The translations under genes were made by a program, and so were the position numbers. The notes under the pieces are model-generated. The model saw only the letters and a list, made by a program, of their open reading frames with translations. It searched no databases and was not told the DNA's origin. Of a stretch of 64,000 nucleotides of DNA, positions 1,385 to 62,036 are shown one piece after another. The stretch comes from a virus (Duplodnaviria; Heunggongvirae; Uroviricota; Caudoviricetes). Position 1 is the stretch's first letter. Each line of letters begins with the position of its first letter. The stretch spans positions 6,073 to 70,072 of the IMG/VR virus record IMGVR_UViG_3300035682_000012. One strand, written 5' to 3'.

Positions 1385-1436
1385 AAAAAAAGGTAGTCTT
1401 TGTGACTACCTTTCAAATATACGAAATATAACTGAG

Positions 1437-1844
1437 TTATCCAACTTTAATGGATACTTTTTTTGGCTTCTTTTCTTCTATCTTAGGTAAAGAGATATGT
1501 AATATACCATCTTTTACCGTTGCTAATGTAGCACTAAGGTCCCAATTAGTTCCAATATTTAACATTTCATCAACAGGAAGTGCAATTGCATTCCAAATTT
1601 TATCATCGGTTTCTTTTTCTATTGATTTTACTTTAATAAAGTTTTGCTCAATTGTAATTTCTAATGTTTCCTTTGTTTGGCCAGGAACTGCTAATCCAAT
1701 TCGTAAGATATCTTCGTTTATATCAACTACTACTTGTTTGTGATTTGAAGTAGCTGTTCTTGTTTTTCTGGCCGCTGTCCAGTTTTGGTATGCATCATCT
1801 ACAAACCAATCGTTTAATAATCTGTCAAATTCATTAATAATCAT
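1437..1844 (-). CDS. Hsp20/alpha-crystallin small heat-shock protein
   Basis: C-terminal 'VKDGILHISLPKIEEKKPKKVSIKV' matches the sHSP 'G-V-L-x-[IV]-x-LPK ... I-x-I' signature; 135 aa. Confidence 0.7.
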   Translation of the reverse strand: MIINEFDRLLNDWFVDDAYQNWTAARKTRTATSNHKQVVVDINEDILRIGLAVPGQTKETLEITIEQNFIKVKSIEKETDDKIWNAIALPVDEMLNIGTNWDLSATLATVKDGILHISLPKIEEKKPKKVSIKVG

Positions 1845-1918
1845 AATTTAATTTTTTTTTGTTAATAATATTCTATATAGTTCAAATACTATACCATTGG
1901 GTTTAATCTGACAATTTG

Positions 1919-2593
1919 TTAGAATTTACCAACATTAAATGAAAATTTGTCATCTTTTACCGACTGTCTTTCAATTACCGTACTCATATGGTCTGCCCAA
2001 TGCATAATGTATTGAATATTTGATTTAAGATATTTTGATGTATCATATACTTTATAATATTTTTCATTGTCCTCATCGTATAGACCATCCGTAAGTTTTA
2101 TACCAAAATATTCGTTCTCATTAATTACAATACCATATTTGGATAATGTAAATAATGTTCTATCAGTTATTGCCATAAAAGAGTTTTTTTCATTTCTTTT
2201 GTATAACTCACCTCTATTTTCAATATGCCATTTAGAATCATTTGGTGCATAATGTAGTTCTTCTTTAGTACCCAATTTACCCAAATCATGATGTATTGCA
2301 ACAAATAGTAATTCTTCTTCGGTGAAATCACATACTCCACCCGCTTCTTCAAATGTTTTTTTCATTTTTAATGCGTTCTTACATACATTAAAGATATGGT
2401 CAATATACCCACCCTCATATGCATTGTGATAGTTTTTATTACCACTTGCAGGTGATACCATTAAGTTTCCACCTAATTCATCATCCGAGTACATAAACAA
2501 AAGTTTTTCTAATCTTTCGCCTGTAAAATATTTGTTAACGATGGCTAGAAACTTATCGTAGTTTGCTTTTAATTCTGCTTCTGTTTTTTTCAT
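1919..2593 (-). CDS. HD-domain phosphohydrolase-like protein
   Basis: 'GGYIDHIFNV' ... 'LLFVAIHHDLGKLG' fits the H...HD metal-binding motifs. Confidence 0.55.
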   Translation of the reverse strand: MKKTEAELKANYDKFLAIVNKYFTGERLEKLLFMYSDDELGGNLMVSPASGNKNYHNAYEGGYIDHIFNVCKNALKMKKTFEEAGGVCDFTEEELLFVAIHHDLGKLGTKEELHYAPNDSKWHIENRGELYKRNEKNSFMAITDRTLFTLSKYGIVINENEYFGIKLTDGLYDEDNEKYYKVYDTSKYLKSNIQYIMHWADHMSTVIERQSVKDDKFSFNVGKF

Positions 2594-2895
2594 TTTGTTA
2601 AATTTTCTTTTGTTAAGATTTTATATAAAAGTTCAATTTCTTCTTCGGTTTCTAACATTGGTAAATTATCAAATAGGGTTATTAAATATTCACCTTCATT
2701 TATTTCCATAGCTTTCCACTCGTCACTTGCGATAGATATCATTGTAGGTCTATTAATAGTTTTAAGCTCATCACCATTGGGTAGTGGTATAATCCAATAA
2801 TAATAATTATTTTCACCATCACTTTCTTCTATTTTAATTGCATTCCATCTTTTAAAAGAATGGTCGGTAATTGGTGTTTGTGGCATTGTTATCAT
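2590..2895 (-). CDS. hypothetical protein (101 aa)
   Basis: Minus-strand ORF, 4 bp overlap (ATGA) with its upstream neighbour. Confidence 0.5.
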   Translation of the reverse strand: MITMPQTPITDHSFKRWNAIKIEESDGENNYYYWIIPLPNGDELKTINRPTMISIASDEWKAMEINEGEYLITLFDNLPMLETEEEIELLYKILTKENLTK

Positions 2896-2919
2896 AAATC
2901 AAATATACAACTTTTTTTC

Positions 2920-3528
2920 CTAATCACAAATTATTCTAATAGATTTTTGTATTGAATCTATTTTTACATCTGAAAATAATTTTGAGTTTGGTATTTCAAT
3001 TGTGAATTTTGCTTTTCCTATAATTGTAATCGTATCACCTTTCATTTTATATATTGGTGCACCCATTGTATTTACCTCACCTGAAAAATATCCTAATTGT
3101 GATGTACCATTTACAATAGGAATTAATTCATCTTTTTGATTAATTAATGTCGGCAATTGTGATATTTGTAATTGACCGGTGTATGGATTAAAATAGGTTT
3201 TAACGATACTACCAACCGAATCACCGGCTTTTAAAAGCCAATAGTGAGAACTACTCCATTCTATTCTACCTGTAACAGGTGAAGGTATTTGATTAGGTTT
3301 ACCATCTACTAAAAATTTACCAGTAATTCTACTTAACGTTTGATTTGTTGTTGTAGATAATACTAAATGATAAAATCCATTATTATCCAATAATAAACTT
3401 TGTTTACCATTTGAATTTAATGCTGAATCAATTGTAAATGAAATAGTGTGTTGTGGTGGAATAGGTGTAACAATATCTTTATTACACGAACATAGTAAAA
3501 CTATGCCAATTAAGGATAAAATCTTCAT
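2920..3528 (-). CDS. predicted lipoprotein (signal peptide + lipobox 'LLCSCNKD')
   Basis: N-terminus MKILSLIGIVLLCSC; promoter-like motif AAAGATACGA 27 nt upstream. Confidence 0.55.
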   Translation of the reverse strand: MKILSLIGIVLLCSCNKDIVTPIPPQHTISFTIDSALNSNGKQSLLLDNNGFYHLVLSTTTNQTLSRITGKFLVDGKPNQIPSPVTGRIEWSSSHYWLLKAGDSVGSIVKTYFNPYTGQLQISQLPTLINQKDELIPIVNGTSQLGYFSGEVNTMGAPIYKMKGDTITIIGKAKFTIEIPNSKLFSDVKIDSIQKSIRIICD

Positions 3529-3553
3529 ATCTTAGGGTTTAATGTTTATACTT

Positions 3554-3563
3554 AAAGATACGA
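3554..3563 (-). promoter_or_regulatory. promoter-like motif AAAGATACGA (TCGTATCTTT on the coding strand)
   Basis: 27 nt upstream of the ATG at 3528; same motif at 25716, 29257, 32276, 45554, 53937, 62027 and variants at 1415, 19131, 19864, 60004. Confidence 0.5.
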
Positions 3564-3583
3564 AATTATTAGGACTTTACCAA

Positions 3584-4360
3584 TTATTTTAGAATATTTG
3601 TTGTAATTAATTGATTATTAACAAGATATGTATATAATTTTTTTGAATATTCTTTATTATGTATGTATCCTGGATGTGCACCATCAATACCATAATCTAT
3701 AAATGGATAAAATTCACCATCAAATCTATTATTATCATTATAATCATTAGTTGCATACCATCCATTCCAAACCCAATTACATTGTTTTGATTCTAAAAAT
3801 AATTTTATTAATTGATGGTTTTTATACCAATTGATAAAATTGTTTGATTTATTTAATAAAGTAAGATGTGCATTATGTTCATTTACACCATTTTCGGTTT
3901 CTTTAAAATACCCCCAACTTTTATGGTGGAATGGTTCTATACCACCTTCATTGGTATAAAATTCTCGTCTATGTGATTCGGTATACATAATTAAAACTAA
4001 ATCAGGTTTTACTAAATCGTAATATGTCATCAAACAACGGGTGATATAATCATTACTTCTACCACCACATCCGAAATTTAAATCAACTCCATTTGGTATT
4101 AATTTACACAATTGATGTGACCATGTTTCGTTATCATTTACACCAACTCCCTCAGTAATAGAACAACCTAATGACATTACCTTAAACCCTTCTTTTTTTA
4201 TACTAGCTCCTCTAAACCCCAATTCATTATAAGTGTAAGTGCAATTTCCTGTAATATCTGAACCCGAATCTTTATATGTTTGATTAACTCTTTCACTTAA
4301 ATTGTTTCTAAACGATGATATTTCAAATCCTTCAGGATTCCAATATTCTAATGGTTTCAT
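3584..4360 (-). CDS. SGNH-like hydrolase, paralog 2
   Basis: 'VMSLGCSITEGVGV' (block I), 'GCGGRSNDY', C-terminal 'DGAHPGYIH' (DxxH). Confidence 0.5.
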   Translation of the reverse strand: MKPLEYWNPEGFEISSFRNNLSERVNQTYKDSGSDITGNCTYTYNELGFRGASIKKEGFKVMSLGCSITEGVGVNDNETWSHQLCKLIPNGVDLNFGCGGRSNDYITRCLMTYYDLVKPDLVLIMYTESHRREFYTNEGGIEPFHHKSWGYFKETENGVNEHNAHLTLLNKSNNFINWYKNHQLIKLFLESKQCNWVWNGWYATNDYNDNNRFDGEFYPFIDYGIDGAHPGYIHNKEYSKKLYTYLVNNQLITTNILK

Positions 4361-14496: not shown

Positions 14497-14558
14497 TATA
14501 GTATTTTTATGTTACTATAAAGATAGTGAAAAGAAATGGAATAAAAAAATAAAATACT

Positions 14559-17029: not shown

Positions 17030-17183
17030 ATAAGTATATGATTTTCCTATACGTGAAAATTTTAACCTTACAATATTTGTGTACTAGGCTCACATATAAA
17101 AAAAATTTAATTTGTCGCATTACAAGAAATGGAGAAGTCGTATTTTTGATATCACATTTTGTGACATCAAAATTTTGGGCATG

Positions 17184-17211
17184 AAAAAACCGGATAGATT
17201 TCTCTACCCGG
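17184..17211 (-). terminator. rho-independent terminator downstream of the histone-like gene
   Basis: Minus-strand RNA CCGGGUAGA-GAAA-UCUAUCCGG (9 bp stem with one G-U pair, GNRA loop) followed by UUUUUU. Confidence 0.6.
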
Positions 17212-17245
17212 CCCTTACACTATGAAAAACTAACCAATAAAATTT

Positions 17246-18707: not shown

Positions 18708-19112
18708 TTAAGCCCAGTACATTATAAGGATATTCTCGACCTGCTTATTACCTAATCCCATCGCCTTCAATTCACGTTTAACCGATGGTATAAATTTCTT
18801 ATCAATCTGCCCGTAGCTCATAGGGTAGTCAGAAATGATACGAGTAATTTGAGCAGACTCTTTTTTCAACATACTAAAAAACGCACACGCCTTTAAAATT
18901 TCGGGTTTGTTTCTACATACTACCTTATGCATACGACCCATAAAATCCTTAAACATTACTATTGAATTAGGTTTTACCGCGTTACTCATTTTAGTAGCAG
19001 AAAAATTAACATAAACAGGTCTCTCGTTACGAGCAGTACTATAAGCTTTGTCAGTAAATTCATTTGTCATTTTGTTATTCATATATAAAATTTTTGTTAT
19101 GTGAGGAGTCAA
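18708..19112 (-). CDS. hypothetical protein (134 aa)
   Basis: Minus-strand ORF, preceded by repeated intergenic element C. Confidence 0.5.
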   Translation of the reverse strand: MTPHITKILYMNNKMTNEFTDKAYSTARNERPVYVNFSATKMSNAVKPNSIVMFKDFMGRMHKVVCRNKPEILKACAFFSMLKKESAQITRIISDYPMSYGQIDKKFIPSVKRELKAMGLGNKQVENILIMYWA

Positions 19113-19378
19113 ACCTTCGACTCAATACATAAAGATAACCCTTTTTCGTGGACTTTTAACACGTTTTAGGTACTATTTTAAAAATTCTTTATTGACTATC
19201 AACGAGTTACGTCACCAAATATGTGGGACCGGCATAAGTCATTGACGCTGAACCACTTACATATGCTACTGAAAATCAATGACTTATGTATTTCACCCCT
19301 TCATATTAGAAAAAATCTAAATATATTCAATTTTATTAGATAATTTTCATTTCAAAGCGGTGCTATTTTAAATAATAT

Positions 19379-19744: not shown

Positions 19745-20346
19745 TTCGGTCAGTTTTAAAATAAACGGGTTAGGTGGTCGCTATTTTGAAGGGGTAAGTA
19801 TAAAGGGAGTAACCAAGCAACCATTTGAGAATAGTATTTATTCTGTCCTAACCCGTTATAACTAAGATACGATAATTTATTTAATCTACCAAATTATATT
19901 GAATCTTTTTGTGTGGGGTATGTGTGTAAAAATAGTCTCTAAAAAATTTTGCGGTCCGACTGAATGGATGGATAAGGTCTAAATGCCGTTGTGATACCTA
20001 TTGTTTCCTTTCCATTCTCTTTGTAACCCTTATTAGTGTTATATTGTGGGGGTTTGTGGGTATAAGTGGGAAATTATTGTACGATGGACCTTATTATTGC
20101 GTTATTTGGTATCAATATACATAAATAGGGATATGATACACTTATACCCGTTATTTGATACCATCTAATAAATGATACTATCTAATTCTTTTACTTCGCT
20201 CCTTATCCCATTGGTAAGTAAAGAAAGCTATGAATAGGGGTGTTATAATCCATTGATACCATTCTACCTTTGTTAATTGTGTAAAGTACAAAAGGAACAT
20301 AATTGTATTTAGTATTGCGAGTGTGAGTGATATGTTTTTATTCATA

Positions 20347-20673
20347 TTAATTATTCATTTGTAGTATTAACTCTATATTGTGTAGAAACATATCTTTCCA
20401 ACGGATTTGTGCAATTGTTAATTGTTTTCTACGTTGTGGCTCTAACATATTGTATAAGGTATAGTAATTATAAGTGTCCATACCTTTACCTTTTACTTTA
20501 TTCCTTTGTAGTATTAAGATTTCATCCCCTTTTGTAAATGTGTTATTAGTAGAATGGATATTGATTTGATAATAGTCTTCGTATTCATATACACCTTCTA
20601 TATTATACCCATCAGTTGTACGATGTAATACCCTTTCACCTTTCAGTTTACTTCTATTGTGTATTGTTAGCAT
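20347..20673 (-). CDS. MLTIKN-family small protein
   Basis: N-terminus MLTIHNRSKLKG; ~105 aa like its paralogs. Confidence 0.6.
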   Translation of the reverse strand: MLTIHNRSKLKGERVLHRTTDGYNIEGVYEYEDYYQINIHSTNNTFTKGDEILILQRNKVKGKGMDTYNYYTLYNMLEPQRRKQLTIAQIRWKDMFLHNIELILQMNN

Positions 20674-20775
20674 ATCCTTTACTTTATTAGTTTTATTATT
20701 TCTATATACACTACTATCATTATTAGTGTTATTATCATTACGCTTATAGTTAGTGTTAGTAGTGACATAGTATTC

Positions 20776-21024
20776 TTATACATTCCTTAGTTCCATACAT
20801 ACACTACATACATTATCTGAATCCTTTTTTATATTATGTATATTACAATATTGGGTTTCTTTACTATGTGTATTATATGTATTGTTATCTGAACTACCGC
20901 TACTATTTCCTTTGCCACTTTTTTCTCTTATCCAATTATACATCCAATCGTTTTGATTACTCATATCGATTATTTTTATATCTTTTTCCGTGTATCTATA
21001 ATTCATATCAATTATTTTTTCCAC
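20776..21024 (-). CDS. hypothetical protein (82 aa), C-terminal CxxC
   Basis: Minus-strand ORF. Confidence 0.45.
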   Translation of the reverse strand: MEKIIDMNYRYTEKDIKIIDMSNQNDWMYNWIREKSGKGNSSGSSDNNTYNTHSKETQYCNIHNIKKDSDNVCSVCMELRNV

Positions 21025-21311
21025 TCACCACTCTTTAATAAGTTTGTTATATAATCCATACTTTGTAATGTAGTAAGGTATACGGGTGCATCATACGTTT
21101 TACCTTTGTATATTACACACGTTGGATGCCATACCATACTACCATTATCTAATTCTAACTTATTCATATTATCTACGTTTGATTTGTTTATTGATTATCT
21201 TATTAAGGTATATAGTTGATACCCTACTTGCCTTACCCCTTTGCCTTATACCCCATATTAAATTATTGATTAAGAATATACTCTTTATACTATGTGCTCT
21301 ATTCATATTAA

Positions 21312-21641
21312 TTACATTTCAATTATTGTTTTCAATTCATACATCATACTATCCATCGTATCAATATTTTCTATTCTTATTATACATCTATTCAATACAC
21401 CTATTACGATATCAATAGAAGTTATCATATATTCATACTCACTCGCTCCATCCGGCCTTTCACGTCCTATCTTCATTGTCAATTCATTATTATGATTTTT
21501 TGAGAATGCATCGCTGGTCCCTATAATTATTTCATATGCCGATTTGTTTTCCCTTACATCTAATATCTTCCATGATTCGGTCATAGAATGTGTCATAATA
21601 TATTGACCTTTTAATTTCTTATAGTTTTGTATTGTTAGCAT
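21312..21641 (-). CDS. MLTIKN-family small protein (true start at internal MLTIQNYKKLKG)
   Basis: The ORF-table extension overlaps the next paralog; internal ATG gives a ~110 aa family-sized protein. Confidence 0.55.
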   Translation of the reverse strand: MLTIQNYKKLKGQYIMTHSMTESWKILDVRENKSAYEIIIGTSDAFSKNHNNELTMKIGRERPDGASEYEYMITSIDIVIGVLNRCIIRIENIDTMDSMMYELKTIIEM

Positions 21642-21646
21642 AAGGT

Positions 21647-21925
21647 TTATATTATATTTGCCATAAAATGTGTCATAGTTAGTAAAAACTTTTTGCAATC
21701 CAATACATCCTTTTTTTGTACCCACATTTGCTGCCCTTCATATGTCATACAATAGTAATCCTTATATGGATGATTGATTTGTGGTGGGTGTATACGGCTT
21801 AGAGTGACCTTATTTAGTGGGTATCCGTTATCAATCCAAAATACATACGCCCAATCAATTTCTTGCACTCTAACATTTACCTTTGTATAATTTCTTATCC
21901 TATCTATGTTATGTATTGTCAACAT
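21647..21925 (-). CDS. MLTIKN-family small protein
   Basis: MLTIHNIDRIRNY. Confidence 0.6.
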   Translation of the reverse strand: MLTIHNIDRIRNYTKVNVRVQEIDWAYVFWIDNGYPLNKVTLSRIHPPQINHPYKDYYCMTYEGQQMWVQKKDVLDCKKFLLTMTHFMANII

Positions 21926-22246
21926 TTATATTGCGTTTAATATTTGCTCAATTTCATTCCTAAATTTCTCGGGTGTGTTTAACCTTTCTTTTATATAATG
22001 AAATAGTAATCCATCAATTTCAATTCCATAAACATAACAATCTTTATTTTGGCTGTTATCAAACACTATACGTCCCTTTTTATGTAGGGTTATATTTTTT
22101 CTTACCAAATGTGGCGGTGATACCTCTCTTATTGAAAAATGTGTAACCTCACTCGTAGTATTATCCCAACCTTTGAAATACCATCCTTTGCCTTTTACAT
22201 TTAATGAATACCCATTTATTTTATGGATGTTTTTAAGTATTAGCAT
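21926..22246 (-). CDS. MLTIKN-family small protein
   Basis: MLILKNIHKINGY. Confidence 0.6.
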   Translation of the reverse strand: MLILKNIHKINGYSLNVKGKGWYFKGWDNTTSEVTHFSIREVSPPHLVRKNITLHKKGRIVFDNSQNKDCYVYGIEIDGLLFHYIKERLNTPEKFRNEIEQILNAI

Positions 22247-22550
22247 CTTCGTCTCTTTTTATATTTGCAATTATACAATTCATATAATAGATTAGCCCTA
22301 CGGGTGATATATCAATAGGGCGTATTAGGACCTCATATAATTTACCATTACGATTTGTTTTCATTCTATACATGCCCATTACTTCATCCTTATTCCTATC
22401 AAATGTAACGTACCATTGTGTTGATTTGTAATGGCCTACATTAGTTAGTACAAATTGATATTCGGTAGGGGCTTCAATTGCTTCATACACTTCCCACTTA
22501 TCCGTTATTTGTTTGCCGTTAATTTTTTCTATGTTTCTTATCTTTAGCAT
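22233..22550 (-). CDS. MLTIKN-family small protein
   Basis: MLKIRNIEKINGK. Confidence 0.6.
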   Translation of the reverse strand: MLKIRNIEKINGKQITDKWEVYEAIEAPTEYQFVLTNVGHYKSTQWYVTFDRNKDEVMGMYRMKTNRNGKLYEVLIRPIDISPVGLIYYMNCIIANIKRDEDANT

Positions 22551-22551
22551 A

Positions 22552-22851
22552 TTATTTCATTATCATTTCAACCGCTCTTATAAAAGTTTGTTTATTACTT
22601 ATTTGTTCTACCTTTAATAACATACTATTAATAGGAGTAGCTTCATTCCATATTATATAACCCTTATCCGTTTTAAATCTATTCAATACAATTTTAATAT
22701 CACTATACGTTTTATTTATATGTCTCAAATGAATATGATATTGTTCGTTACCCTCTTGATTCCAACTCCATGTGTTAAGTACATAATAAACTCCCGTACC
22801 ACCATCAATTCTTTGATTGATTAGTGTAAACATATTTTCTATTGTTAGCAT
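22552..22851 (-). CDS. MLTIKN-family small protein (start at internal MLTIENMF)
   Basis: Family N-terminus at an internal ATG; the conserved 'attgttagcat' on the + strand marks the start. Confidence 0.55.
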   Translation of the reverse strand: MLTIENMFTLINQRIDGGTGVYYVLNTWSWNQEGNEQYHIHLRHINKTYSDIKIVLNRFKTDKGYIIWNEATPINSMLLKVEQISNKQTFIRAVEMIMK

Positions 22852-22922
22852 TGTATATATAGTTTTTACTATCAAAAAAATTTAGGTAACGACACTTTTT
22901 TCCCCCAACCCCCGCCCGCCGT

Positions 22923-23099
22923 TATTTACTTATTCTTTTGTTTATTAAATTCTTCTATTAAACTTTCTATCATATCATCCCCTAAATGAATATTATGTAA
23001 GAATTTAATCATAGAATATTGTGCTAAATACATTGATGTGGATACTTTTTTATCCCCGTCTACTAATTCTATTCTAATTTGTGCTTCTGTATTTTCCAT
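22923..23099 (-). CDS. small hypothetical protein (58 aa, MENTEAQIRIELVDG...)
   Basis: ORF just below the table cutoff, filling the gap between two family members. Confidence 0.35.
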
Positions 23100-23110
23100 A
23101 TTATTTTGTT

Positions 23111-23434
23111 TTATTTACTGAAACTATCTAATTGTCCGCCTAACATACCAGGAAACATTTTGAAATCTAATAAACCTTTTGTTAGTGTTACACAATTACT
23201 ATTTTGGTCATTATACATTCGCCATTCGTTTGCTGTACTATCGAATTCATTATATCTTAATATTTTAAATTTTATATACTTTGGATGCTTTACTCCGAAT
23301 GATTTACCATAATCAAATCTAACTTTGATATTATAATCATATTTTAGTTCCTCTATACTCATTACTACCCAATGTGCATGCACTGTCTCTATTTTAGTTC
23401 CTTCTATCTTTTGTATATTACCTATTTTTAGCAT
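23111..23434 (-). CDS. MLTIKN-family small protein
   Basis: MLKIGNIQKIEGT. Confidence 0.6.
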   Translation of the reverse strand: MLKIGNIQKIEGTKIETVHAHWVVMSIEELKYDYNIKVRFDYGKSFGVKHPKYIKFKILRYNEFDSTANEWRMYNDQNSNCVTLTKGLLDFKMFPGMLGGQLDSFSK

Positions 23435-23435
23435 A

Positions 23436-23747
23436 CTATTCGTTTAACATTTTATCAATTGCTTGCTTTATAAAGTACGGGCTTATTTGATGTAAACTTA
23501 ACCACCTATTTATTTTAGTTTGGTCAAAATCTTTATACAATCTATAAACAGGTTCGTTTCTACCGCTTACATATTGGCTCTCTCTATTCAAATAAAATAT
23601 ATTTTGTATTTTACCATTTATAGAAACAGCAAATCCATATACATCTTTATAAGTATCAACTGCTTCAGTTGCCTTAATTATATGCCATTTGTAAGGTAGT
23701 GGTGATGTTATGTTTATTATCTTATCTATGTTTTGTATTTTTAGCAT
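23436..23747 (-). CDS. MLTIKN-family small protein
   Basis: MLKIQNIDKIINI. Confidence 0.6.
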   Translation of the reverse strand: MLKIQNIDKIINITSPLPYKWHIIKATEAVDTYKDVYGFAVSINGKIQNIFYLNRESQYVSGRNEPVYRLYKDFDQTKINRWLSLHQISPYFIKQAIDKMLNE

Positions 23748-23758
23748 ATCATTTTTAT

Positions 23759-24073
23759 TTAACCTAATGCAACTAATCTTAACTTGTCAATGAATATATC
23801 CATATTACCAATTTCTTTTGGTGTTATGTAGTATATGTGTCCCGTGCTACTATGTAATTTATAATCATAGTTACCATCACGTCCCACCTCATCCCTATCT
23901 AATGTGACCGTTATTGCCCATTTTCTATTAGTTAATTCAAATATGTATTTATGGTTTTTTGTAGTGAACATTGCTCCATCCATATCAAATTTTTCCTCAA
24001 CCCTTTCTACATAAAAGTTTTTCTTACCGAGTGTTTTATGCTGTATCTTATTTATGTTTTGTATTCGTAGCAT
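23759..24073 (-). CDS. MLTIKN-family small protein
   Basis: MLRIQNINKIQHK. Confidence 0.6.
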   Translation of the reverse strand: MLRIQNINKIQHKTLGKKNFYVERVEEKFDMDGAMFTTKNHKYIFELTNRKWAITVTLDRDEVGRDGNYDYKLHSSTGHIYYITPKEIGNMDIFIDKLRLVALG

Positions 24074-24074
24074 A

Positions 24075-24317
24075 CTATTTATTTAAAAACCATTTTCCAA
24101 ATTTGAATATCATTTTGAAAATACCAATTATTAAAATCATAGGTATTATCACCGGCCAAAATATAGAGAATGCAGTAAATGCTTGTTCATTACTATCCCA
24201 GTCATCCCATTCCATTTTACGATTATCATAATCAAATCCAATTTTCACTCCAAAGTATTTGAAAAATGTTAGTGTCAATAAAAATCCTATTATGTATATT
24301 GTTATTATTGTTATCAT
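24075..24317 (-). CDS. small membrane protein (80 aa, 2 TM)
   Basis: Hydrophobic segments IITIYIIGFLLTLTFF and WPVIIPMILIIGIF. Confidence 0.5.
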   Translation of the reverse strand: MITIITIYIIGFLLTLTFFKYFGVKIGFDYDNRKMEWDDWDSNEQAFTAFSIFWPVIIPMILIIGIFKMIFKFGKWFLNK

Positions 24318-24526
24318 ATGTTATTCCATTTATTTGCGAAGTTATTATCATTTTTAAGTAAATAATCAAACTCTTCTATTTTTAATATTCTAAATTTTCC
24401 GGTAGAGTCTTCCACTAACCAATTATCATAAAGCCAATCATCTAAATCACCTACATCTGATTTTCTCCATAGTTCGTCCATTCCGTTACCATAGTTATCA
24501 TATAGTGTTTCTAATGCTGTTTTCAT
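24314..24526 (-). CDS. hypothetical protein (70 aa)
   Basis: Minus-strand ORF, ATGA overlap with the next gene. Confidence 0.5.
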   Translation of the reverse strand: MKTALETLYDNYGNGMDELWRKSDVGDLDDWLYDNWLVEDSTGKFRILKIEEFDYLLKNDNNFANKWNNI

Positions 24527-24654
24527 TTTATTTCTTCGATTTTGATGCTTTAATCAATTTTGATGCTTTAATCAATAGTATTGTTATCCATACTACTGCC
24601 GTCAATACACATGCTATTTCTACTATCAATGCTATCGTTGCTATTGTTTTCATT

Positions 24655-25524
24655 CTATATAAATTTTATTATTGCTAAATCTTTTTGTTTTGCTTCTACC
24701 ATTATGTCCACTATGTTGCCGTATGTTTCAGGAATCCTTTCAATGAAATCACTATGTGCCTGTGGCTTACTACCCATCTTACTTTCAGAATAGTGAACTG
24801 CCGGTGTTATACCTTTCGGCCATGTACTCATAGCTAACTCTAATGCATCTTGCTCACTTAAATTTCCGGTATTGAATGTGTGATGATGATAATCAAATAC
24901 AATAGGTATCTTTATTGCATTGTGAATATACATTAAGTCTTTAACTGAATACATACTCGCCTTATCGTCATTCTCAATTGTTAATCTGCTCTTTACTGAA
25001 TCAGATAGTAGTTTAAAATTATCTATGAACCTATCCATCGCACTTTGCTTATCACCATACACTCCGTTACAATGTATATTGATTTTATTGTAAGGTGTTT
25101 TAGATAATCCTATCGCATCCATCAACCTACCATGCACTTCTAAATCATTTATTGTATTTTGTACTACCGCTTCTTTTGGTGAAACTAATACATTAAAAGG
25201 ACCTGGATGAAATGATAATCTTTGTCCATACTTTGTTGCTTTATCACCACATCTTTTTAGTATGATTGCAATTTCATTCCAATCTTTTAATTGTTCAAAT
25301 TGATATTCAGTAGCCCATGGCATCATATCGGAACTCATACGATACATCTTAATACCATTCTGCTCATTCCATTCTATAATCCGTTCTAAGTCCGCTACAT
25401 TTTGTATAACACAATCCGATACATAATCCAGTCCCTTTTCTAAAAAAGTTCTCTTAATCATTGTTCGGTTTGTAGTGACCTTTTTACCCAAACTCATATT
25501 AATACATGCATATCCTAAATTCAT
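24655..25524 (-). CDS. uvdE: UV DNA damage endonuclease (UvdE/Uve1 family)
   Basis: 'TIENDDK', 'VFDYHHH', 'MVEAKQKDLAI' and the overall TIM-barrel UVDE layout, co-linear with bacterial UvdE. Confidence 0.88.
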   Translation of the reverse strand: MNLGYACINMSLGKKVTTNRTMIKRTFLEKGLDYVSDCVIQNVADLERIIEWNEQNGIKMYRMSSDMMPWATEYQFEQLKDWNEIAIILKRCGDKATKYGQRLSFHPGPFNVLVSPKEAVVQNTINDLEVHGRLMDAIGLSKTPYNKINIHCNGVYGDKQSAMDRFIDNFKLLSDSVKSRLTIENDDKASMYSVKDLMYIHNAIKIPIVFDYHHHTFNTGNLSEQDALELAMSTWPKGITPAVHYSESKMGSKPQAHSDFIERIPETYGNIVDIMVEAKQKDLAIIKFI

Positions 25525-25694
25525 ACTTTCTTTGTTTTTCGTTTGAGTAATTCGGTTTCTATTTTAGATATTCTACCTTCCATAGAATGTATTTTAAATC
25601 TATGTATGAAATTACCTAATATTGTTTTAGGTATTCTAGCTTGCTCTGCAATCAATGATGCTTTCATTGCTCTTAGAATTTTTCTTAGTGCCAT
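25521..25694 (-). CDS. small protein (57 aa, MALRKILRAMKASLIAEQARIPK...)
   Basis: The ORF-table start is TTG-derived; the internal ATG at 25694 lies 24 nt downstream of the promoter-like motif. Confidence 0.45.
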   Translation of the reverse strand: MALRKILRAMKASLIAEQARIPKTILGNFIHRFKIHSMEGRISKIETELLKRKTKKV

Positions 25695-25715
25695 ACTATG
25701 AATTAGTTTATACTT

Positions 25716-25725
25716 AAAGATACGA
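25716..25725 (-). promoter_or_regulatory. promoter-like motif AAAGATACGA
   Basis: 24 nt upstream of the ATG at 25694. Confidence 0.5.
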
Positions 25726-25796
25726 AATATATATGAAACTATCAAAAAAAAATTAGGTTAAACGACCTTCGCTCAACCCCCGCCCCTTCCCGCTGA

Positions 25797-26500: not shown

Positions 26501-26501
26501 A

Positions 26502-29250: not shown

Positions 29251-29284
29251 ATACTTAAAGATACGAAAAATTACCCATTTTACC

Positions 29285-29313
29285 AAAGAAAAAGGGTACT
29301 TTTTATGTACCCC
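29285..29313 (-). terminator. rho-independent terminator
   Basis: Minus-strand GGGUAC-AUAAAAA-GUACCC followed by UUUUUCUUU, just downstream of the stop of 29380..30177. Confidence 0.5.
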
Positions 29314-32260: not shown

Positions 32261-32275
32261 AACCTTTATTTTTAT

Positions 32276-32285
32276 AAAGATACGA
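32276..32285 (-). promoter_or_regulatory. promoter-like motif AAAGATACGA
   Basis: About 18 nt upstream of the ATG at 32260. Confidence 0.5.
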
Positions 32286-32378
32286 TAAATTATTCAAACT
32301 ACCAAATGTTATTGTGATTTTCTATTCTTAGCCTTTACATCTATTGTACCTTTGGTATTAGTTTTACCAACTGAATTG

Positions 32379-32649: not shown

Positions 32650-32892
32650 TTATTTAGATTTTGTTTCTTTTGCTTTTTGTTCTGCTAAATAATCACCTAA
32701 TACTTTACTGCCTCTTTTAGTAGTCATTAATTCTTTTTGTGAAACTCTTATACCATTACGATATACTCTTAGTTCTAGCTCCTCGCCATTTTTTAACATA
32801 AAGAAATGATATTCAGGCTTAAAGAATTGCTTTATTTTTCTAAATATATTCATAATGTAAATATACAATAAGTTATCCATTATACCAAACAA
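32650..32892 (-). CDS. hypothetical protein (80 aa)
   Basis: Minus-strand ORF. Confidence 0.45.
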   Translation of the reverse strand: MFGIMDNLLYIYIMNIFRKIKQFFKPEYHFFMLKNGEELELRVYRNGIRVSQKELMTTKRGSKVLGDYLAEQKAKETKSK

Positions 32893-35461: not shown

Positions 35462-35478
35462 TATTTAGTATTAATATA

Positions 35479-35745: not shown

Positions 35746-35780
35746 TTTGTTTTGTTTTATATAAATATATGTTTTTATTA

Positions 35781-36512: not shown

Positions 36513-36568
36513 AATAACGATTTCCTATAAGTATTAATATGTTCAAAAAAATGATTAGCCATTCGTTG
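36508..36568. repeat. 61 bp direct repeat (copy 1), spanning the end and junction of SGNH paralogs
   Basis: 'ttcataataacgatttcctataagtattaatatGttcaaaaaaatgattagccattcgttg', identical except for one base to 37271..37331. Confidence 0.7.
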
Positions 36569-37282: not shown

Positions 37283-37331
37283 AATAACGATTTCCTATAA
37301 GTATTAATATATTCAAAAAAATGATTAGCCA
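37271..37331. repeat. 61 bp direct repeat (copy 2)
   Basis: See copy 1; encodes the shared C-terminus '...MANHFFE[HY]INTYRKSLL' plus the gene junction. Confidence 0.7.
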
Positions 37332-45164: not shown

Positions 45165-45503
45165 TTATTTACGTTTATCATATTCGGCATCTAAAATCCC
45201 TTGCATTGAAGCTAAGAAATTCTTTTTATCTAGTAATCTATCTTTCGGCCATGCTGTAATTGAAATAAATTTATCATAGTGTTCATAACATACGCAAATA
45301 TTATAACCAAATTCCCCTGCTTTTCTTTCAATTTGAATAGCGGCACCAACACTATCTTTACTATTACTATTTCTACTTAAACGAATATTATAATGGTCTG
45401 CGTTTATGTGATGTTCACTAGCACCACATACTTCTACTCCCAAGACTTCCCATTTTCCAATGTATGTATTTTTTAATTTTTCTATATTATTTAGTGTTAG
45501 CAT
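45165..45503 (-). CDS. MLTIKN-family small protein
   Basis: MLTLNNIEKLKNTY. Confidence 0.55.
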   Translation of the reverse strand: MLTLNNIEKLKNTYIGKWEVLGVEVCGASEHHINADHYNIRLSRNSNSKDSVGAAIQIERKAGEFGYNICVCYEHYDKFISITAWPKDRLLDKKNFLASMQGILDAEYDKRK

Positions 45504-45530
45504 ATATTATGATTTTTTATTATATGAGTA

Positions 45531-45655
45531 GTCATTCTCTCAACTCAATACATAAAGATACGACTTTATATTGAATTGGCAATGCCCAAAGTGAACTAAT
45601 TTTAAAAGTTTTTATTGAGAATCAACTAGTTACGTCAATATAACCTTATCATATT
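45531..45655. repeat. ~120 bp repeated intergenic element, copy A
   Basis: 'cattctctcaactcaatacataaagatacgactttatattg...caaagtgaactaattttaa...ttacgtcaatat' aligns along its length with copies at 53911..54035 and (more loosely) 19111..19230. Confidence 0.55.
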
Positions 45656-45683
45656 AGTATTTTTTATTATATGATACCTAATA

Positions 45684-46007
45684 TTATTTAAAATTATAGT
45701 TATCCAATTTTGCTAAACATTTTGTTATCATAGTTGCCAAATCAGCTGCACTTCTAACATCTGAATTATCTATTTCGACTTCGGTAGCTGCTGCCCATCC
45801 CATAACATATAGTTTATAATTACCTTGTGGTTTTTTATCTCTGTCTAAATAAACTTCACAATCCGGTTTGCCCGCACCATCATCTTTAAATACAAATACA
45901 TAAGAATCATAATTCATTCTTTGATTATGTAGATTATAAAATTCTTTTATGGTTCGGCTATTACAAGTATAACCAACCATTTTTTCTATGTTTTTTATTG
46001 TAAGCAT
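45684..46007 (-). CDS. MLTIKN-family small protein (start at internal MLTIKNIEKM)
   Basis: Internal ATG. Confidence 0.55.
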   Translation of the reverse strand: MLTIKNIEKMVGYTCNSRTIKEFYNLHNQRMNYDSYVFVFKDDGAGKPDCEVYLDRDKKPQGNYKLYVMGWAAATEVEIDNSDVRSAADLATMITKCLAKLDNYNFK

Positions 46008-46008
46008 A

Positions 46009-46272
46009 TTATAATTTTTCAAGTTTAGCAATTACATCCATTACATCTTCGGGTCTTAAATAACCAAGTACATCATTCGTAATCGGCGTATCGTAACATA
46101 TTTCACCATCTTTGAAAATAGCTAATTCATACAATCCGATATCACCACCATACGAGTGCGGACTTTGTACTACTGATACTTCATATCCATTATCTAATTT
46201 AGTTCTACTTACAATACCAAACTCAGCACCCATAGGGTTTGTTTTAAATTCAATATCTTTAAATGTTTTCAT
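46009..46272 (-). CDS. hypothetical protein (87 aa)
   Basis: Minus-strand ORF. Confidence 0.45.
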   Translation of the reverse strand: MKTFKDIEFKTNPMGAEFGIVSRTKLDNGYEVSVVQSPHSYGGDIGLYELAIFKDGEICYDTPITNDVLGYLRPEDVMDVIAKLEKL

Positions 46273-46325
46273 AATTTGTTTTATTTAATCTATAAAGGTA
46301 GTTAATTTTTCTGATACTACCAAAT

Positions 46326-46676
46326 CTATTTATATGCTTTAATAGGTTTAATTTTCATTTGCCAATTATTGTTACCCGCCATTTGGCATATCATATAACC
46401 AAACCAATCTTTGTTTTTAATACAATTCAAAGTCACTTCGGTTCTTAAATGAGATGCGTGTGTTTGATACATAACATAGTTACCACTATATTTTGCACTG
46501 CTATCCCTTAATAGAGTAAATCCAATGTAATCTTGTATTGTTCCATTTTGTTTTATCAATGAAACTGTTATTGCATACTTTTCCGTACCTTCGTTTATAT
46601 CCTCAATGGATAATGTATAACCATCACATTCAATATAATTACCTTTAAGTTCATTAAAGTTTTTAATGGTTAGCAT
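46326..46676 (-). CDS. MLTIKN-family small protein
   Basis: MLTIKNFNELKGNY. Confidence 0.6.
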   Translation of the reverse strand: MLTIKNFNELKGNYIECDGYTLSIEDINEGTEKYAITVSLIKQNGTIQDYIGFTLLRDSSAKYSGNYVMYQTHASHLRTEVTLNCIKNKDWFGYMICQMAGNNNWQMKIKPIKAYK

Positions 46677-53729: not shown

Positions 53730-53918
53730 TTATTTAGTTTCTTCATTATGTTTAAATACTATTTCAAACTTTCTATCTTCAATAGAAAAACTATCTAAGA
53801 CTGTTTGTAATTGTTTTGCCAGATTATCTAATTTAGATTCATCTTTAAATTCAAATTCAATGTTGAACTGAAATGTTACACTATTCATATTATAAAATTT
53901 TACTATGTGACTACCCAT
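53730..53918 (-). CDS. hypothetical protein (62 aa)
   Basis: Minus-strand ORF 21 nt downstream of the promoter-like motif in repeated element B. Confidence 0.45.
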   Translation of the reverse strand: MGSHIVKFYNMNSVTFQFNIEFEFKDESKLDNLAKQLQTVLDSFSIEDRKFEIVFKHNEETK

Positions 53919-54035
53919 TCTCTCGACTCAATACATAAAGATACGACTTTATATTGGACTTTGAACAGGCCAAAGTAACTATTTTTAGGTTTTTCAAAGA
54001 TTTTTGACTGACTATCAATGAGTTACATATATGAT
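53911..54035. repeat. ~120 bp repeated intergenic element, copy B
   Basis: Same conserved blocks as copy A. Confidence 0.55.
53937..53946 (-). promoter_or_regulatory. promoter-like motif AAAGATACGA within repeated element B
   Basis: 21 nt upstream of the ATG at 53918. Confidence 0.5.
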
Positions 54036-54178
54036 TTTTTTATATATGGGTAAAAAGTTATAGACATATATAACCCATTGAGAATCAATAAGTTATAACT
54101 CTTTGATAATCAATGGGTTAGGAATTTGAGTTATTATATTACATTTTTATATAATATCAACCCTTATTTTATGTATTA

Positions 54179-57774: not shown

Positions 57775-58110
57775 TTAAATCCCATCTTTTAATCCTCTCT
57801 TTTTAATAAGTATATCAATAGATGCACTTTCGTTTTGTTTTATAATTGGTTTTAAACTATCATACAACCCATCTGAGAACACTTCATCCGTTCCCTTATC
57901 ACTATTTGCTACTGCCGTAGAAATGTGTGCAAATCGTTTTAATTTGTACGGAGAGAGTGGTACAATATGTTGTTTGAGACTTAGGGCTTTAGCATCCAGG
58001 TACTCGAATAATTCCGAGTCGGTCATTTGTTTTAGTTCCTCGTCTGTCTTATTAAATTCCATACTCAAATATACTAATAAATAATGAATTAAAAAAATAA
58101 AGGGGAACAT
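57775..58110 (-). CDS. hypothetical protein (111 aa)
   Basis: Minus-strand ORF. Confidence 0.5.
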   Translation of the reverse strand: MFPFIFLIHYLLVYLSMEFNKTDEELKQMTDSELFEYLDAKALSLKQHIVPLSPYKLKRFAHISTAVANSDKGTDEVFSDGLYDSLKPIIKQNESASIDILIKKRGLKDGI

Positions 58111-58132
58111 TTCTGCTCCCCGTTTGTATGTT

Positions 58133-59980: not shown

Positions 59981-60034
59981 ACTTTTAAATTTTAGTGTTT
60001 ATTAAATATACGAAATATAATTGGATTTACCAAA

Positions 60035-60637
60035 TTATATATTTTGTTCTTTGTATAATTTCATATACTTGTCACTCATTTTTTTGTAGTTCATTCTGAA
60101 ATTAGGGGGCATTGCTTCATAGATAGCTTTATTACTATATGGTGCGTTGCCTGGTCTACTCCATCTCTTTGAGTATCTCATATAATTGTAGAACTGAACA
60201 TATGCGTTTGCTTTTTTAATATAATCGTTAAGGTCAATTGGTAGTTTCCATTTCTTAATTAGCTTTACCGAGCGTTTCTCATTATCCAATTCTAAATCTC
60301 TACTCCATTCTATTGCTTTCTTAACACTACGAATTTTTTTACCACCCAACCAATCGTCTAAATGGGTCACTCCGGTCGAACCGGTTTTCCATATGTTAGT
60401 GCTCTTATCTTGCCATTGTGTTAAGTGTGCATATTCATGTGTTAATATACCTAACCAATCTTTACTTTTACCCGCTACTACTAATCTCATAGTTTCCTCA
60501 CAAAAGTAACCACTACATCTTATATTACCACTCAATACTAAATATTTTACAGGTCGTATTTGGCATCTAATCCCCACTTCCTTACAATGTCCTTTCACAT
60601 GATTAATGAAAGCTCTTACGTTTTTTGTTAATGCCAT
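60035..60637 (-). CDS. HExxH-motif protein (putative zinc metalloprotease, 200 aa)
   Basis: 'GILTHEYAHLTQW'. Confidence 0.45.
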   Translation of the reverse strand: MALTKNVRAFINHVKGHCKEVGIRCQIRPVKYLVLSGNIRCSGYFCEETMRLVVAGKSKDWLGILTHEYAHLTQWQDKSTNIWKTGSTGVTHLDDWLGGKKIRSVKKAIEWSRDLELDNEKRSVKLIKKWKLPIDLNDYIKKANAYVQFYNYMRYSKRWSRPGNAPYSNKAIYEAMPPNFRMNYKKMSDKYMKLYKEQNI

Positions 60638-60667
60638 TTTGTTTTATTATTAATTTAAAAAATAAAG

Positions 60668-60686
60668 GAGGGTACAAATTGTACCC
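60668..60686 (-). terminator. hairpin (GGGTAC-loop-GTACCC) followed by a T-run on the minus strand
   Basis: Near-perfect palindrome GGGTACAAATTGTACCC, then UUUAUUUUUU in minus-strand RNA; lies between the AAA gene and the HExxH gene. Confidence 0.45.
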
Positions 60687-60746
60687 CCCTTAGTTATTTA
60701 GGTATAGTCGTTATGAGTATGTATAAAACTATACCCTCATAACATA

Positions 60747-61979
60747 TTACCAAACAATAGTATCGTCATTCGCATCTTCCTCTTTCACTTCGTTGAATAA
60801 CTTTTCACCTTCATTCTCATCTACTACGAATTTTTGTATAAGTTGCTTAATGTAAGTACGCTCACTATCCATACCACCATCTTGTGAATAGAACGGGAAG
60901 ATTGCTACCTCAGCTGCTTCTAACAAACTGAAACCATCATACAACAAACCTGCCATCTCTACTGAAATACGAGTTGATACAGCAGTTGTCAATTTACCCG
61001 CCTCACCTTTGATTTGGTCTCTAGTGTGTGCCGCAATCTCTGCTACTGATTTCAAATTGTAATCATTCGTATCAGGATATAACATCTTTAACAATTCATA
61101 TTCCTGCTCAGCATTCAATACATCTACCTCAATTGTCACGAATCTATCTAACAATGCTCTATCCATTACACGCGTTGCAGTATATTCAGAACCGATGTTT
61201 GCAGTTGCAATAAAGGTAACACCTTCTGCCACCTTAACAATTGGTGAATTTTCTTGCTCATCTAATCGTAAGTATCTTTGTGTTTGGTCTAACACTGTCA
61301 TTAGGATATTAGCGGCTTCTGGATGAGCTCTACTTAATTCATCTAATAACACAACTGCGTAAGGTGTCTTAATAGCTTTAACGAATGCACTCTCACTAAA
61401 ATAAGTACCACTTGCTTTGTTAAAGTGTGTGTTACCAATTAATGCCGCCCTCGGGTCTTGCGTCGCACCTAAGTTAAAGTAATGAAACGGTCTTTTCAAT
61501 GCCGCAACTAATGCTTTAGCTGCCATTGTCTTACCACTACCCGCAGGTCCTGTCATCATAATATTTCGCGCTCGAACCGCTGAACGTAATAAATATTTCC
61601 ACTTCAACTCGTTCATAATTAAGTTAGCAGGTTTTAACGCCATACCCTCTTTATGAATGAAATCGATAACATCTTTATGCTCCGTTGGATTTTCTACGAT
61701 AGTTTCAGCGATATCCGTATTCATCGGCTTAACCAACATATCCGTATATTCTTGCATTTCTACCATACGATAGCTTTTAGCTCCGTTTTTGTTTACATGC
61801 GCACGAATTGCTTTATTTTGTGCTGATGCTTTTTTTCGTAAAGAACTACCTACTATTGTAGAATCTGAACTACTTAATACATCACCCGCAGTATTAACTA
61901 AGTTAAAACGGGATTTAAGATTTTCTACTTTGTACACTTCATTTGTGTAACCATACTCTTGTGTTGCTTTTTTACTCAT
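60747..61979 (-). CDS. MoxR/CobS-like AAA+ ATPase
   Basis: Walker A 'MMTGPAGSGKT', Walker B 'VVLLDELSRA', sensor/arginine-finger region; 410 aa. Confidence 0.8.
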   Translation of the reverse strand: MSKKATQEYGYTNEVYKVENLKSRFNLVNTAGDVLSSSDSTIVGSSLRKKASAQNKAIRAHVNKNGAKSYRMVEMQEYTDMLVKPMNTDIAETIVENPTEHKDVIDFIHKEGMALKPANLIMNELKWKYLLRSAVRARNIMMTGPAGSGKTMAAKALVAALKRPFHYFNLGATQDPRAALIGNTHFNKASGTYFSESAFVKAIKTPYAVVLLDELSRAHPEAANILMTVLDQTQRYLRLDEQENSPIVKVAEGVTFIATANIGSEYTATRVMDRALLDRFVTIEVDVLNAEQEYELLKMLYPDTNDYNLKSVAEIAAHTRDQIKGEAGKLTTAVSTRISVEMAGLLYDGFSLLEAAEVAIFPFYSQDGGMDSERTYIKQLIQKFVVDENEGEKLFNEVKEEDANDDTIVW

Positions 61980-62026
61980 AACTGAATTTTTAATGTTTAT
62001 TGTTTAATTATTGTTTGATATATCAT

Positions 62027-62036
62027 AAAGATACGA
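62027..62036 (-). promoter_or_regulatory. promoter-like motif AAAGATACGA upstream of the AAA+ ATPase gene
   Basis: 48 nt upstream of the ATG at 61979. Confidence 0.45.

Follow-up and report, generated by a model that had tools for sequence, protein, structure and literature searches.

The primary sigma factor of the Bacteroidota recognizes promoters with TTTG at -33 and TAnnTTTG (TAHHTTTG) at -7, and transcription starts 4-5 nt downstream (PMC6847099). In promoters of Flavobacterium johnsoniae the G at -5 is nearly invariant, and the -33 element is barely visible in chromosomal ones (PMC6847099). The middle promoters of the Cellulophaga crAss-like phage phi14:2, mapped by primer extension, are read by the host RNA polymerase (bioRxiv 10.1101/2020.03.07.982082). 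They serve the middle and the structural genes, and a virion polymerase reads the early genes (bioRxiv 10.1101/2020.03.07.982082). The early promoters of T4-type phages, including the promoter-early stem-loop (PeSL) sequences, are unusually well conserved promoters of the host sigma factor; A-tracts lie upstream of them, and a terminator hairpin is frequently fused to them (PMC2839356, PMC4122927). Here we describe a recurrent motif in a 64-kb stretch of DNA from an uncultured tailed phage (IMG/VR record IMGVR_UViG_3300035682_000012, positions 6,073 to 70,072), hereafter called the window. The window has 29% G+C and ~116 open reading frames (ORFs), essentially all on the minus strand. We believe, with a probability of about 0.75, that the motif comprises the -7 element and flanks of strong promoters, and that the polymerase reading them is that of the host, with the primary sigma factor of the Bacteroidota (sigma-A, 'ABfr').

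The motif was enriched on one strand and outside of genes. The decamer AAAGATACGA occurred seven times on the plus strand (3554, 25716, 29257, 32276, 45554, 53937, and 62027) and never on the minus strand, and all seven copies were in non-coding DNA. These positions, and those of four variants (aaagataacc at 19131, aagatacgat at 19864, and an identical 17-mer at 1415 and 60004), had been given in the original prediction, made by a model from the sequence alone, and an exact search confirmed every one; aaagataacc also occurs once at 83, by chance. The decamer had been described as followed by A or T. This was correct for five copies, and the eleventh base is C at 45554 and 53937. The 11-mer ending in A or T had five matches compared to 0.24 expected, a number reached in none of 100 shuffled sequences, and with one mismatch allowed there were 20 matches compared to 6.0 expected, 13 of them on the plus strand.

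An enrichment ranking that did not have the motif as an input pointed to the same element. We ranked all coding-strand 8-mers by their enrichment in the non-coding 6.8% of the window. The top-ranked 8-mer was CGTATCTT, the complement of the decamer, with eight of eight copies non-coding (p = 2.8e-10), and the 8-mers ranked next were its overlapping neighbours, thereby upholding the predicted bias toward positions outside coding regions. The mechanical ORF calls include two of the copies, at 25716 and 29257, but solely by extending the ORFs to a TTG farther upstream. We also built a position weight matrix from 12 clear sites and tested it on the opposite strand and on 50 shuffled sequences. The 12 sites scored 21.7-40.2, and the maximum was 17.3 in the shuffles and 15.0 on the opposite strand. 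Scans with the matrix and with regular expressions added a strong copy (G at -13 at 32866) and weaker candidates at 58074, 46301, 14526, and 2908; a match at 39089 was inside a gene and was not counted. Nearly identical metagenomic contigs continue past the window edge, and the first 8 kb beyond it contained five further copies, all on the gene strand and just before an ATG. The closest of these contigs is 100,044 bp (sample 3300042888), indicating that the genome is at least 100 kb.

Given this distribution, we consider it very improbable that the decamer is mainly an operator for a regulatory protein, or a chance low-complexity repeat, rather than a promoter core. The low G+C content does favor chance matches, and the loose pattern TTG-N18-21-TAHHTTTr is common even on the non-coding strand (27 matches), too permissive in AT-rich DNA to define the class alone. 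However, the exact motif was far above the shuffles and strictly strand- and position-specific, it is non-palindromic with a fixed partner element 20 nt away, and a separate palindrome upstream of some copies (described below) is a better operator candidate.

The copies had the anatomy of a two-block promoter. On the coding strand the layout spans 37 nt: TTTGGTA at -33, approximately 15 variable nucleotides, TTTCG, TATCTTTA at -7, and (A/T)GTAT at the predicted start. The TTCG is at -16 to -13, TATCTTTA has the form TAnnTTTr, and there are A-rich tracts at approximately -42 and -52. The distance from the G of TTTG to the TA was 20 nt in nine copies and 19 nt in one, accounting for ten of the 12 strong copies. 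The TAnnTTT core, read as TAT(C/A)TTT, was present in 11 of the 12, the exception being the copy at 19870 (TATCTTAG), and there was no G at -10 or -9. Position -5 was A in nine of the 12 strong copies; G at this position was confined to promoters 1422 and 19870 and to two weaker candidates, 58074 and 2908. All 12 strong copies were on the gene strand and non-coding; 11 were 0-45 nt before an ATG and one was before a small RNA.

The 12 strong copies and four weaker candidates are listed with their matrix scores. Strong copies are named for the window position of the G at -13 (for 19138, of an anchor position), and 'operator subclass' denotes three copies with a common flank, discussed below.

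62021..62057, minus strand: promoter 62034; TTTGGTA, TTTCG, TATCTTTA; score 35.4; ATG 61979 of a CobS-like AAA ATPase, predicted leader ~42 nt
59998..60034, minus strand: promoter 60011; TTTGGTA, TTTCG, TATATTTA; score 35.5; ATG 59980 of a 615-amino-acid ORF, predicted leader ~18 nt
53931..53967, minus strand: promoter 53944, operator subclass; AGTCG TATCTTTA TGTAT, no TTG at -33; score 33.5; followed by the shared leader
45548..45584, minus strand: promoter 45561, operator subclass; TTG at 19 nt; score 32.2; ATG 45503 of a member of the MLTIKN family
32853..32889, minus strand: promoter 32866, not in the original prediction; TTTGGTA, TATTG, TATATTTA; score 24.9; ATG 32853, predicted leaderless; terminator directly upstream
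32270..32306, minus strand: promoter 32283; TTTGGTA, TATCG, TATCTTTA; score 37.1; ATG 32260
29251..29287, minus strand: promoter 29264; TTTGGTA, TTTCG, TATCTTTA AGTAT; score 40.2; ATG 29250, predicted leader 0-2 nt; terminator 29315-29291 abuts the -33 element
25710..25746, minus strand: promoter 25723; TTTGATA, TTTCG, TATCTTTA AGTAT; score 35.5; ATG 25694; T-run of terminator 25779-25755 enters the -33 element
19857..19893, minus strand: promoter 19870; TTTGGTA, TATCG, TATCTTAG (TATCTTTG in relatives); score 30.1; followed by a small RNA and no protein gene
19125..19161, minus strand: promoter 19138, operator subclass; GGGT TATCTTTA TGTAT, TGTTAAA in place of the -33 element; score 21.7; ATG 19082
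3548..3584, minus strand: promoter 3561; ATTGGTA, TTTCG, TATCTTTA AGTAT; score 34.7; ATG 3528 of a lipoprotein-like ORF
1409..1445, minus strand: promoter 1422; GTTGGAT, TTTCG, TATATTTG with the canonical G at -5; score 25.4; ATG 1384
58061..58097, minus strand: weaker candidate 58074; TATATTTG AGTATG, no TTG; score 20.7; ATG 58062 is the A of GTAT, predicted leaderless; terminator 58121-58102 upstream
46288..46324, minus strand: weaker candidate 46301; TTTGGTA, 20-nt spacing, TACCTTTA; score 15.0; ATG 46272
14513..14549, minus strand: weak candidate 14526; TATCTTTA TAG, no TTG at -33; score 6.1; ATG 14496
2895..2931, minus strand: weaker candidate 2908; ATTTG, 19-nt spacing, TATATTTG; score 12.6; ATG 2895, predicted leaderless

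The copies were positioned as promoters of the genes that follow them. We calculated leaders after moving start codons from upstream TTG codons to the first in-frame ATG. The predicted leaders were 0-45 nt, and four genes (ATG at 58062, 32853, 29250, and 2895) would be leaderless or nearly so. The proposal that the motif precedes at least 11 minus-strand genes was largely borne out: the 11 copies originally listed were non-coding and faced genes, and that at 19864 precedes a small RNA. The spacing to the ATG, given as 10-60 nt, was found in nine of the 11 (16-51 nt), and was 7 nt at 29257 and 120 nt at 19864. The 12 strong and approximately four weaker copies split the 64-kb one-directional gene arm into transcription units of ~1-13 kb. 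At 29264, 25723, and 58074 the hairpin of an intrinsic terminator adjoins the upstream side of the -33 element, and another is visible at 32866, indicating that these positions are boundaries of transcription units.

Two further elements were near promoters. An 11-bp hairpin with a T-run, resembling a terminator, is at 1388-1414 (minus strand), in the interval that separates the ATG at 1384 from the -7 element of promoter 1422. It may terminate the upstream gene, in which case it overlaps the promoter, or it may be a leader attenuator. A repeated G-rich element (GGCGGGGGTTG...GTCGTTTAACCTAATTTTTTTTTGATAG) is present at 22876-22925 and 25746-25796 (minus strand), and the latter copy runs on into promoter 25723. 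In the copy at 22.9 kb the TTTGATAG block is kept and the TATCTTTA block is absent, and this copy may be a decayed or an alternative promoter.

Other promoter models did not describe these sites. Sites of the Escherichia coli type (TTGACA/TATAAT) were not enriched in the window, with 134, 134, and 118 matches in the 20-kb segments compared to 148, 158, and 139 in shuffles, and we dropped that model because the counts were below the shuffles in every segment. We also considered the promoter of an extracytoplasmic function sigma factor (-35 AAC, 16-17 nt before a short -10 element of the CGT type, and little conserved sequence after it), with TCGTA as the -10 element. The upstream block is TTTGG and not AAC, and across phages the G at -13 was present in only 26-52% of sites and the TATMTTTA block in 90% or more, and we rejected that reading.

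The key positions were conserved in orthologous promoters. We located the orthologues of promoter 3561 through the downstream protein (36-100% identity), without using the motif. In ten such promoters the TTGG, T-15 and C-14, the TA, the TTTA, and GTATA were invariant, and the spacer varied freely. The key positions were likewise kept in nine sequences of the small-RNA promoter (19870), and several of the relatives have the canonical TATCTTTG. Together with the TTG or TTTG 19-20 nt upstream in ten of 12 copies and the orientation of all copies toward genes, this conservation supports the earlier suggestion that the motif contains a -7 element of the Bacteroidota sigma-A type (TATCTTTA).

The window promoters resemble those of sigma-ABfr in most features and differ in a few. 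In both there are two blocks, with a TTG 19-21 nt before the TA, with T-12, A-11, T-8, T-7, and T-6 and with no G at -10 or -9; the distance from the -7 element to the start is a few nucleotides, and neither type resembles TTGACA/TATAAT. In contrast to the described consensus, the window has A at -5 in most copies, a strong -33 element, conserved T-16, T-15, and C-14, and GTAT at the start. With A at -5 such copies are outside the strict TAnnTTTG consensus, and we classify them as a variant that would work like a Bacteroidota sigma-A promoter. Like the window, phi14:2, which has a host in the Flavobacteriia, has an A-tract, a TTG, and a -7 element at 19-20 nt, and some of its sites are directly before an ATG. 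Unlike the window, its sites follow TAnnTTTG-TA, in which -5 is the canonical G, and lack the TTC(G) block, and it has a virion polymerase, of which none is evident in the window. The presence of G-5 without TTC in phi14:2 and of A-5 with TTC in the window indicates that Bacteroidota phages use at least two flavours of this promoter.

By the general model for such promoters, sigma would make contact with the TTG through its region 4 and with TATMTTT through its region 2. The A-rich tracts (about -42 and -52) would have a role similar to that of UP elements. Transcription would start at or next to the A or T of GTAT. The window and bacterial genomes both have ORFs that begin at the A of GTAT, which suggests a start at this A or one base later.

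The same extended sequence was found in unrelated phages. The exact 18-mer TTTCGTATCTTTAWGTAT was present in 60 IMG/VR loci, with G+C contents from 26% to 44%. Eleven of these are close relatives of the window, and the loci include several unrelated phage groups: in tblastn searches with the window proteins, 28 of the 60 had no match and most of the rest had one distant homologue. Many of the 60 contained several further copies of the motif. To collect independent sites we required only TTG-N20-TAHHTTTr and an ATG close by, leaving out seed copies as well as the window's relatives. In the resulting 79 sites, T-16 was present in 89%, T-15 in 85%, C-14 in 80%, T-10 in 95%, A-5 in 97%, T-2 in 90%, A-1 in 82%, and T+1 in 75%.

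A cultured phage with an annotated genome had the same position frequencies. Flavobacterium phage vB_FspM_immuto_2-6A (NC_055915; host Flavobacterium sp. LMO8; hereafter immuto) has 30 strict copies in 150 kb, and the gene strand carries 29 of these. Small unknown ORFs at 60.9-76.2 kb follow 22 of the copies, and the 50 kb with the replication and structural genes contain only two. The immuto consensus, AAAwAGTTGC-N15-TTCn-TATMTTTA-GGTAT, precedes almost every small ORF in this 15-kb block. It differs from that of the window in the flank of the -33 element (AGTTGC compared to TTTGGTA) and in being followed by a stereotyped leader, CAATAATTAAAAC. The region of immuto from 50 to 150 kb shares one distant protein homologue with the window (tblastn). 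Publications that mention immuto do not treat its promoters, and we found none describing these sites. The structural genes of immuto (terminase, portal, sheath, tube, and others; 119-150 kb of the record) are preceded by a different motif, (C/A)TATTTATAA, that resembles the T4 late promoter TATAAATA. Such a T4-late-like motif (TATTTATA / TATAAATA) was not enriched before genes in the window, where there were three loose candidates (11539, 9312, and 556).

The sequence was also present in bacterial chromosomes, next to genes of mobile elements. Among the genomes of 185,579 bacterial and archaeal species, one genome per species, the 18-mer had 64 matches, 41 of them in Bacteroidota. A TTG at 19-21 nt accompanied 11 of the 41 Bacteroidota matches compared to one of the 23 in other phyla. 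In Bacteroidota chromosomes the 18-mer directly precedes genes for insertion sequence (IS) transposases (IS66-type, IS1182/IS5-like) and for integrases. In nine of the 41 an ORF, in some cases transposase-like, begins exactly at the A of GTATG, indicating that promoters of this type would give rise to leaderless mRNAs; after other copies, IS66-type transposase and integrase-like ORFs follow a leader of 16-20 nt. Because chromosomal mobile elements have only the host polymerase and carry the same motif, these copies point to unmodified host RNA polymerase.

These comparisons bear on an alternative close to the original prediction, which had suggested that the motif may be the virus's own middle or late promoter class. 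In that case the promoters would be read after the phage had modified the polymerase, or by a phage sigma factor, and A-5 and the TTC block would be the marks of the class. We think that this is rather unlikely. The same extended sequence is found in phage groups that have no proteins in common and is used by IS transposase and integrase genes in chromosomes, and most copies have the full -33 element. In immuto the copies precede small genes of unknown function and the structural genes have the T4-late-like motif; the annotation of its 150 kb contains no sigma factor, and the only polymerase label, a 100-amino-acid ORF called subunit N (RpoN/RPB10), is dubious.

Several points weigh against recognition by the unmodified host polymerase, and some of them favor the virus-specific alternative. 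Most prominent is the A at -5 in nine of 12 window copies and in 95-97% of phage sites elsewhere, compared to the nearly invariant G in F. johnsoniae and the G in the middle promoters of phi14:2; a modified polymerase or another sigma factor could account for it. Promoters 53944 and 19138 lack the TTG at -33. In these two and in 45561 the -33 element is weak or displaced, and all three have a common leader and an operator-like palindrome at about -72 or -82, as would suit activator-dependent middle promoters. However, the orthologues of 19138 have a TTG at 19 nt. In favor of the host polymerase, the Pfam families listed (25 of 36) for the 116 ORFs of the window include no sigma factor or RNA polymerase domain. 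This result covers 64 kb, and the genome has at least 100 kb; a divergent phage sigma factor could have escaped. The viral loci were picked by one seed copy and are enriched for phages that use the class, the chromosomal sites used for comparison number just 13, and the chromosomal copies before IS and integrase genes are themselves candidate promoters. Recognition by the host sigma-A holoenzyme without a phage factor, and the exact start sites, the strength, and the timing, are predictions from sequence. Taking these points into account, we continue to favor promoters read by the host polymerase with sigma-A.

The promoters precede small ORFan, paralogous, and accessory genes. The accessory genes include those for a UvdE endonuclease, a DNA ligase, 2-oxoglutarate-Fe(II) oxygenases, Hsp20, a radical S-adenosylmethionine enzyme, and a CobS/MoxR-like ATPase, and there were no structural genes in the window among the Pfam families listed. 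With moderate confidence, the promoters are most likely early or constitutive, for accessory and host-takeover genes; early use is suggested by the two host-type blocks, the accessory and ORFan context, and the avoidance of structural modules by the class in immuto. By Pfam and PHROGs the large ORFs of the window are mostly ORFans. The nearest tblastn matches to the CobS-like ATPase are in distant huge or uncultured phages, and a megablast search with 12 kb of the window found no nucleotide relatives among 50,697 phage records.

The conserved blocks might instead be mobile terminator-promoter cassettes, similar to PeSL and kept as patches of homology for the shuffling of small genes. There is precedent for this in PeSL (PMC4122927, PMC2839356), and the window shares with the T4 early promoters and PeSL the repetition before small variable genes of unknown function and the presence of mosaic junctions nearby. 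Four copies have a terminator hairpin directly upstream, copies flank small ORFan and paralogous genes, and three copies share ~110 nt of flank. Breakpoints relative to related contigs adjoin copies at 1380-1384, 3621-3644, 25709/25791, and 29349-29366. However, many breakpoints are at gene boundaries without a promoter, the enrichment near promoters is about twofold by a rough count, and most copies share just the ~37-nt promoter. The window also differs from the T4 and PeSL systems in host phylum and in sigma consensus, and it has terminators at ~4 of 16 copies. Such a role would complement promoter function rather than replace it, and as a full explanation of the conserved blocks we find it quite unlikely. 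A PeSL-like role in recombination is weakly indicated, by analogy, and is a lead.

The related contigs (L012-L018, L053, and L133-L142) are mosaics of the window, with identities from 70% to 100% between neighbouring genes and with gain and loss of whole genes. Several of the mosaic junctions are in spacers that contain promoters; for example, 29350-30160 is lost in L012 and L015.

Host-type promoters in the window would be known in kind, as an array of strong promoters in a large phage without its own polymerase. What appears mildly new is an extended consensus common to unrelated phages and to chromosomal mobile elements of Bacteroidota. We found no description of it (A-5, TTC at -16 to -14, GTAT) in the literature searched, and a search with the motif string gave nothing beyond unrelated primers and aptamers. 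From sequence alone, the promoters assign this uncultured freshwater phage to a host phylum, and they break up its 64-kb arm, in which most genes are unknown, into transcription units that can be tested. With the extended consensus, models of Bacteroidota promoters could be refined, strong promoter parts could become available for genetics in Flavobacteriia, and hosts could be predicted in viromes. Tentatively, there may be a Bacteroidota-wide promoter grammar of mobile elements, TTG-N15-TTCn-TATMTTTA-rGTAT, distinct from housekeeping promoters with their G-5 and weak -33 element. An extended -7 contact (T-16, T-15, and C-14) could let sigma-A accept A at -5, or a different host sigma factor could be involved. 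If real, this grammar would be a sequence-only marker of Bacteroidota hosts for uncultured viruses and a source of strong portable promoters.

Some of the promoters have operator-like palindromes upstream. The palindrome TAAC-N3-TTGA-N3-TCAA(-N3-GTTA) had 11 strand-matches at seven sites compared to 1.25 expected, and in the window it was present only upstream of promoters 62034, 53944, 45561, and 19138. A shorter form, TTGATnnTCAA with one mismatch, was not enriched (64 compared to 50 expected); only the longer form was.

62066..62139, no strand assigned: two operator-like palindromes upstream of promoter 62034
54008..54120, no strand assigned: group of three operator-like palindromes before promoter 53944, with the proximal one centred at about -82
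45615..45632, no strand assigned: operator-like palindrome centred at about -72 of promoter 45561
19192..19209, no strand assigned: operator-like palindrome centred at about -72 of promoter 19138, kept in relatives; more half-sites at ~19230-19280
3611..3621, no strand assigned: degenerate palindrome TTAATAATCAA, ~68 nt upstream of the predicted start of promoter 3561

The degenerate palindrome at 3561 is better preserved in orthologues (TTGATAATCAA), and the proximal palindrome at 53944 is one helical turn farther from the promoter than those at 19138 and 45561. From this arrangement, the palindrome is probably bound by a dimeric regulator, and the five promoters 62034, 53944, 45561, 19138, and 3561 are probably regulated. 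Pfam gave no candidate regulator among the small proteins that adjoin the operator-bearing promoters.

Promoters 53944, 45561, and 19138 also have a common leader of ~45 nt (TGTATTGAGTCGAGAGAATGACTnCTCAcATAAnAAAAA...) before three unrelated genes. The ~110-nt flank shared by these copies includes the operator and the leader.

53889-53930, 45504-45547, and 19083-19124, minus strand: shared leader

The predicted hairpin in the leader is weak, without covariation, and we found no convincing RNA structure there.

Promoter 19870 is followed by a structured small RNA.

19756..19857, minus strand: structured small RNA of ~95-100 nt, downstream of promoter 19870

Its fold comprises an inner hairpin and a closing stem of 11 bp, after which comes UUUAUUUU (a U-run); the z-score is -3.9. 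The RNA is conserved in eight relatives, and in the nine sequences there were five covarying pairs and no broken pair. An invariant single-stranded loop, GUUACUCCYUUU, is pyrimidine-rich and resembles an anti-Shine-Dalgarno sequence. The RNA matches no Rfam family, with nothing above sub-threshold noise at the locus, and there were no tRNA genes and no Rfam families anywhere in the window.

Two groups of paralogous proteins are encoded in tandem. At least 13 small proteins (~103-137 amino acids) that begin with MLTIKN, MLKIQN, or MLTLNN are in arrays at 20347-26816 and 45165-46676 (minus strand), and no Pfam or PHROG match was seen for this family. At 34066-37950 (minus strand) there are tandem paralogues with an N-terminal FG(D/C)S(F/H)(S/T), resembling SGNH/GDSL hydrolases, and possibly others at 551-1384, 3584-4360, and 30162-30989; no such Pfam family was present at E <= 0.001 among the families listed.

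Further symmetry was found in two long non-coding spacers, at 17030-17245 and 19894-20177 (minus strand). One has a palindrome, TTGATGTCACAAAATGTGATATCAA, at ~17.1 kb. The other has an inverted repeat with perfect 11-nt arms at 20058-20068 and 20139-20149, 70 nt apart. It is possible that these spacers contain a second RNA or a site for replication or regulation.

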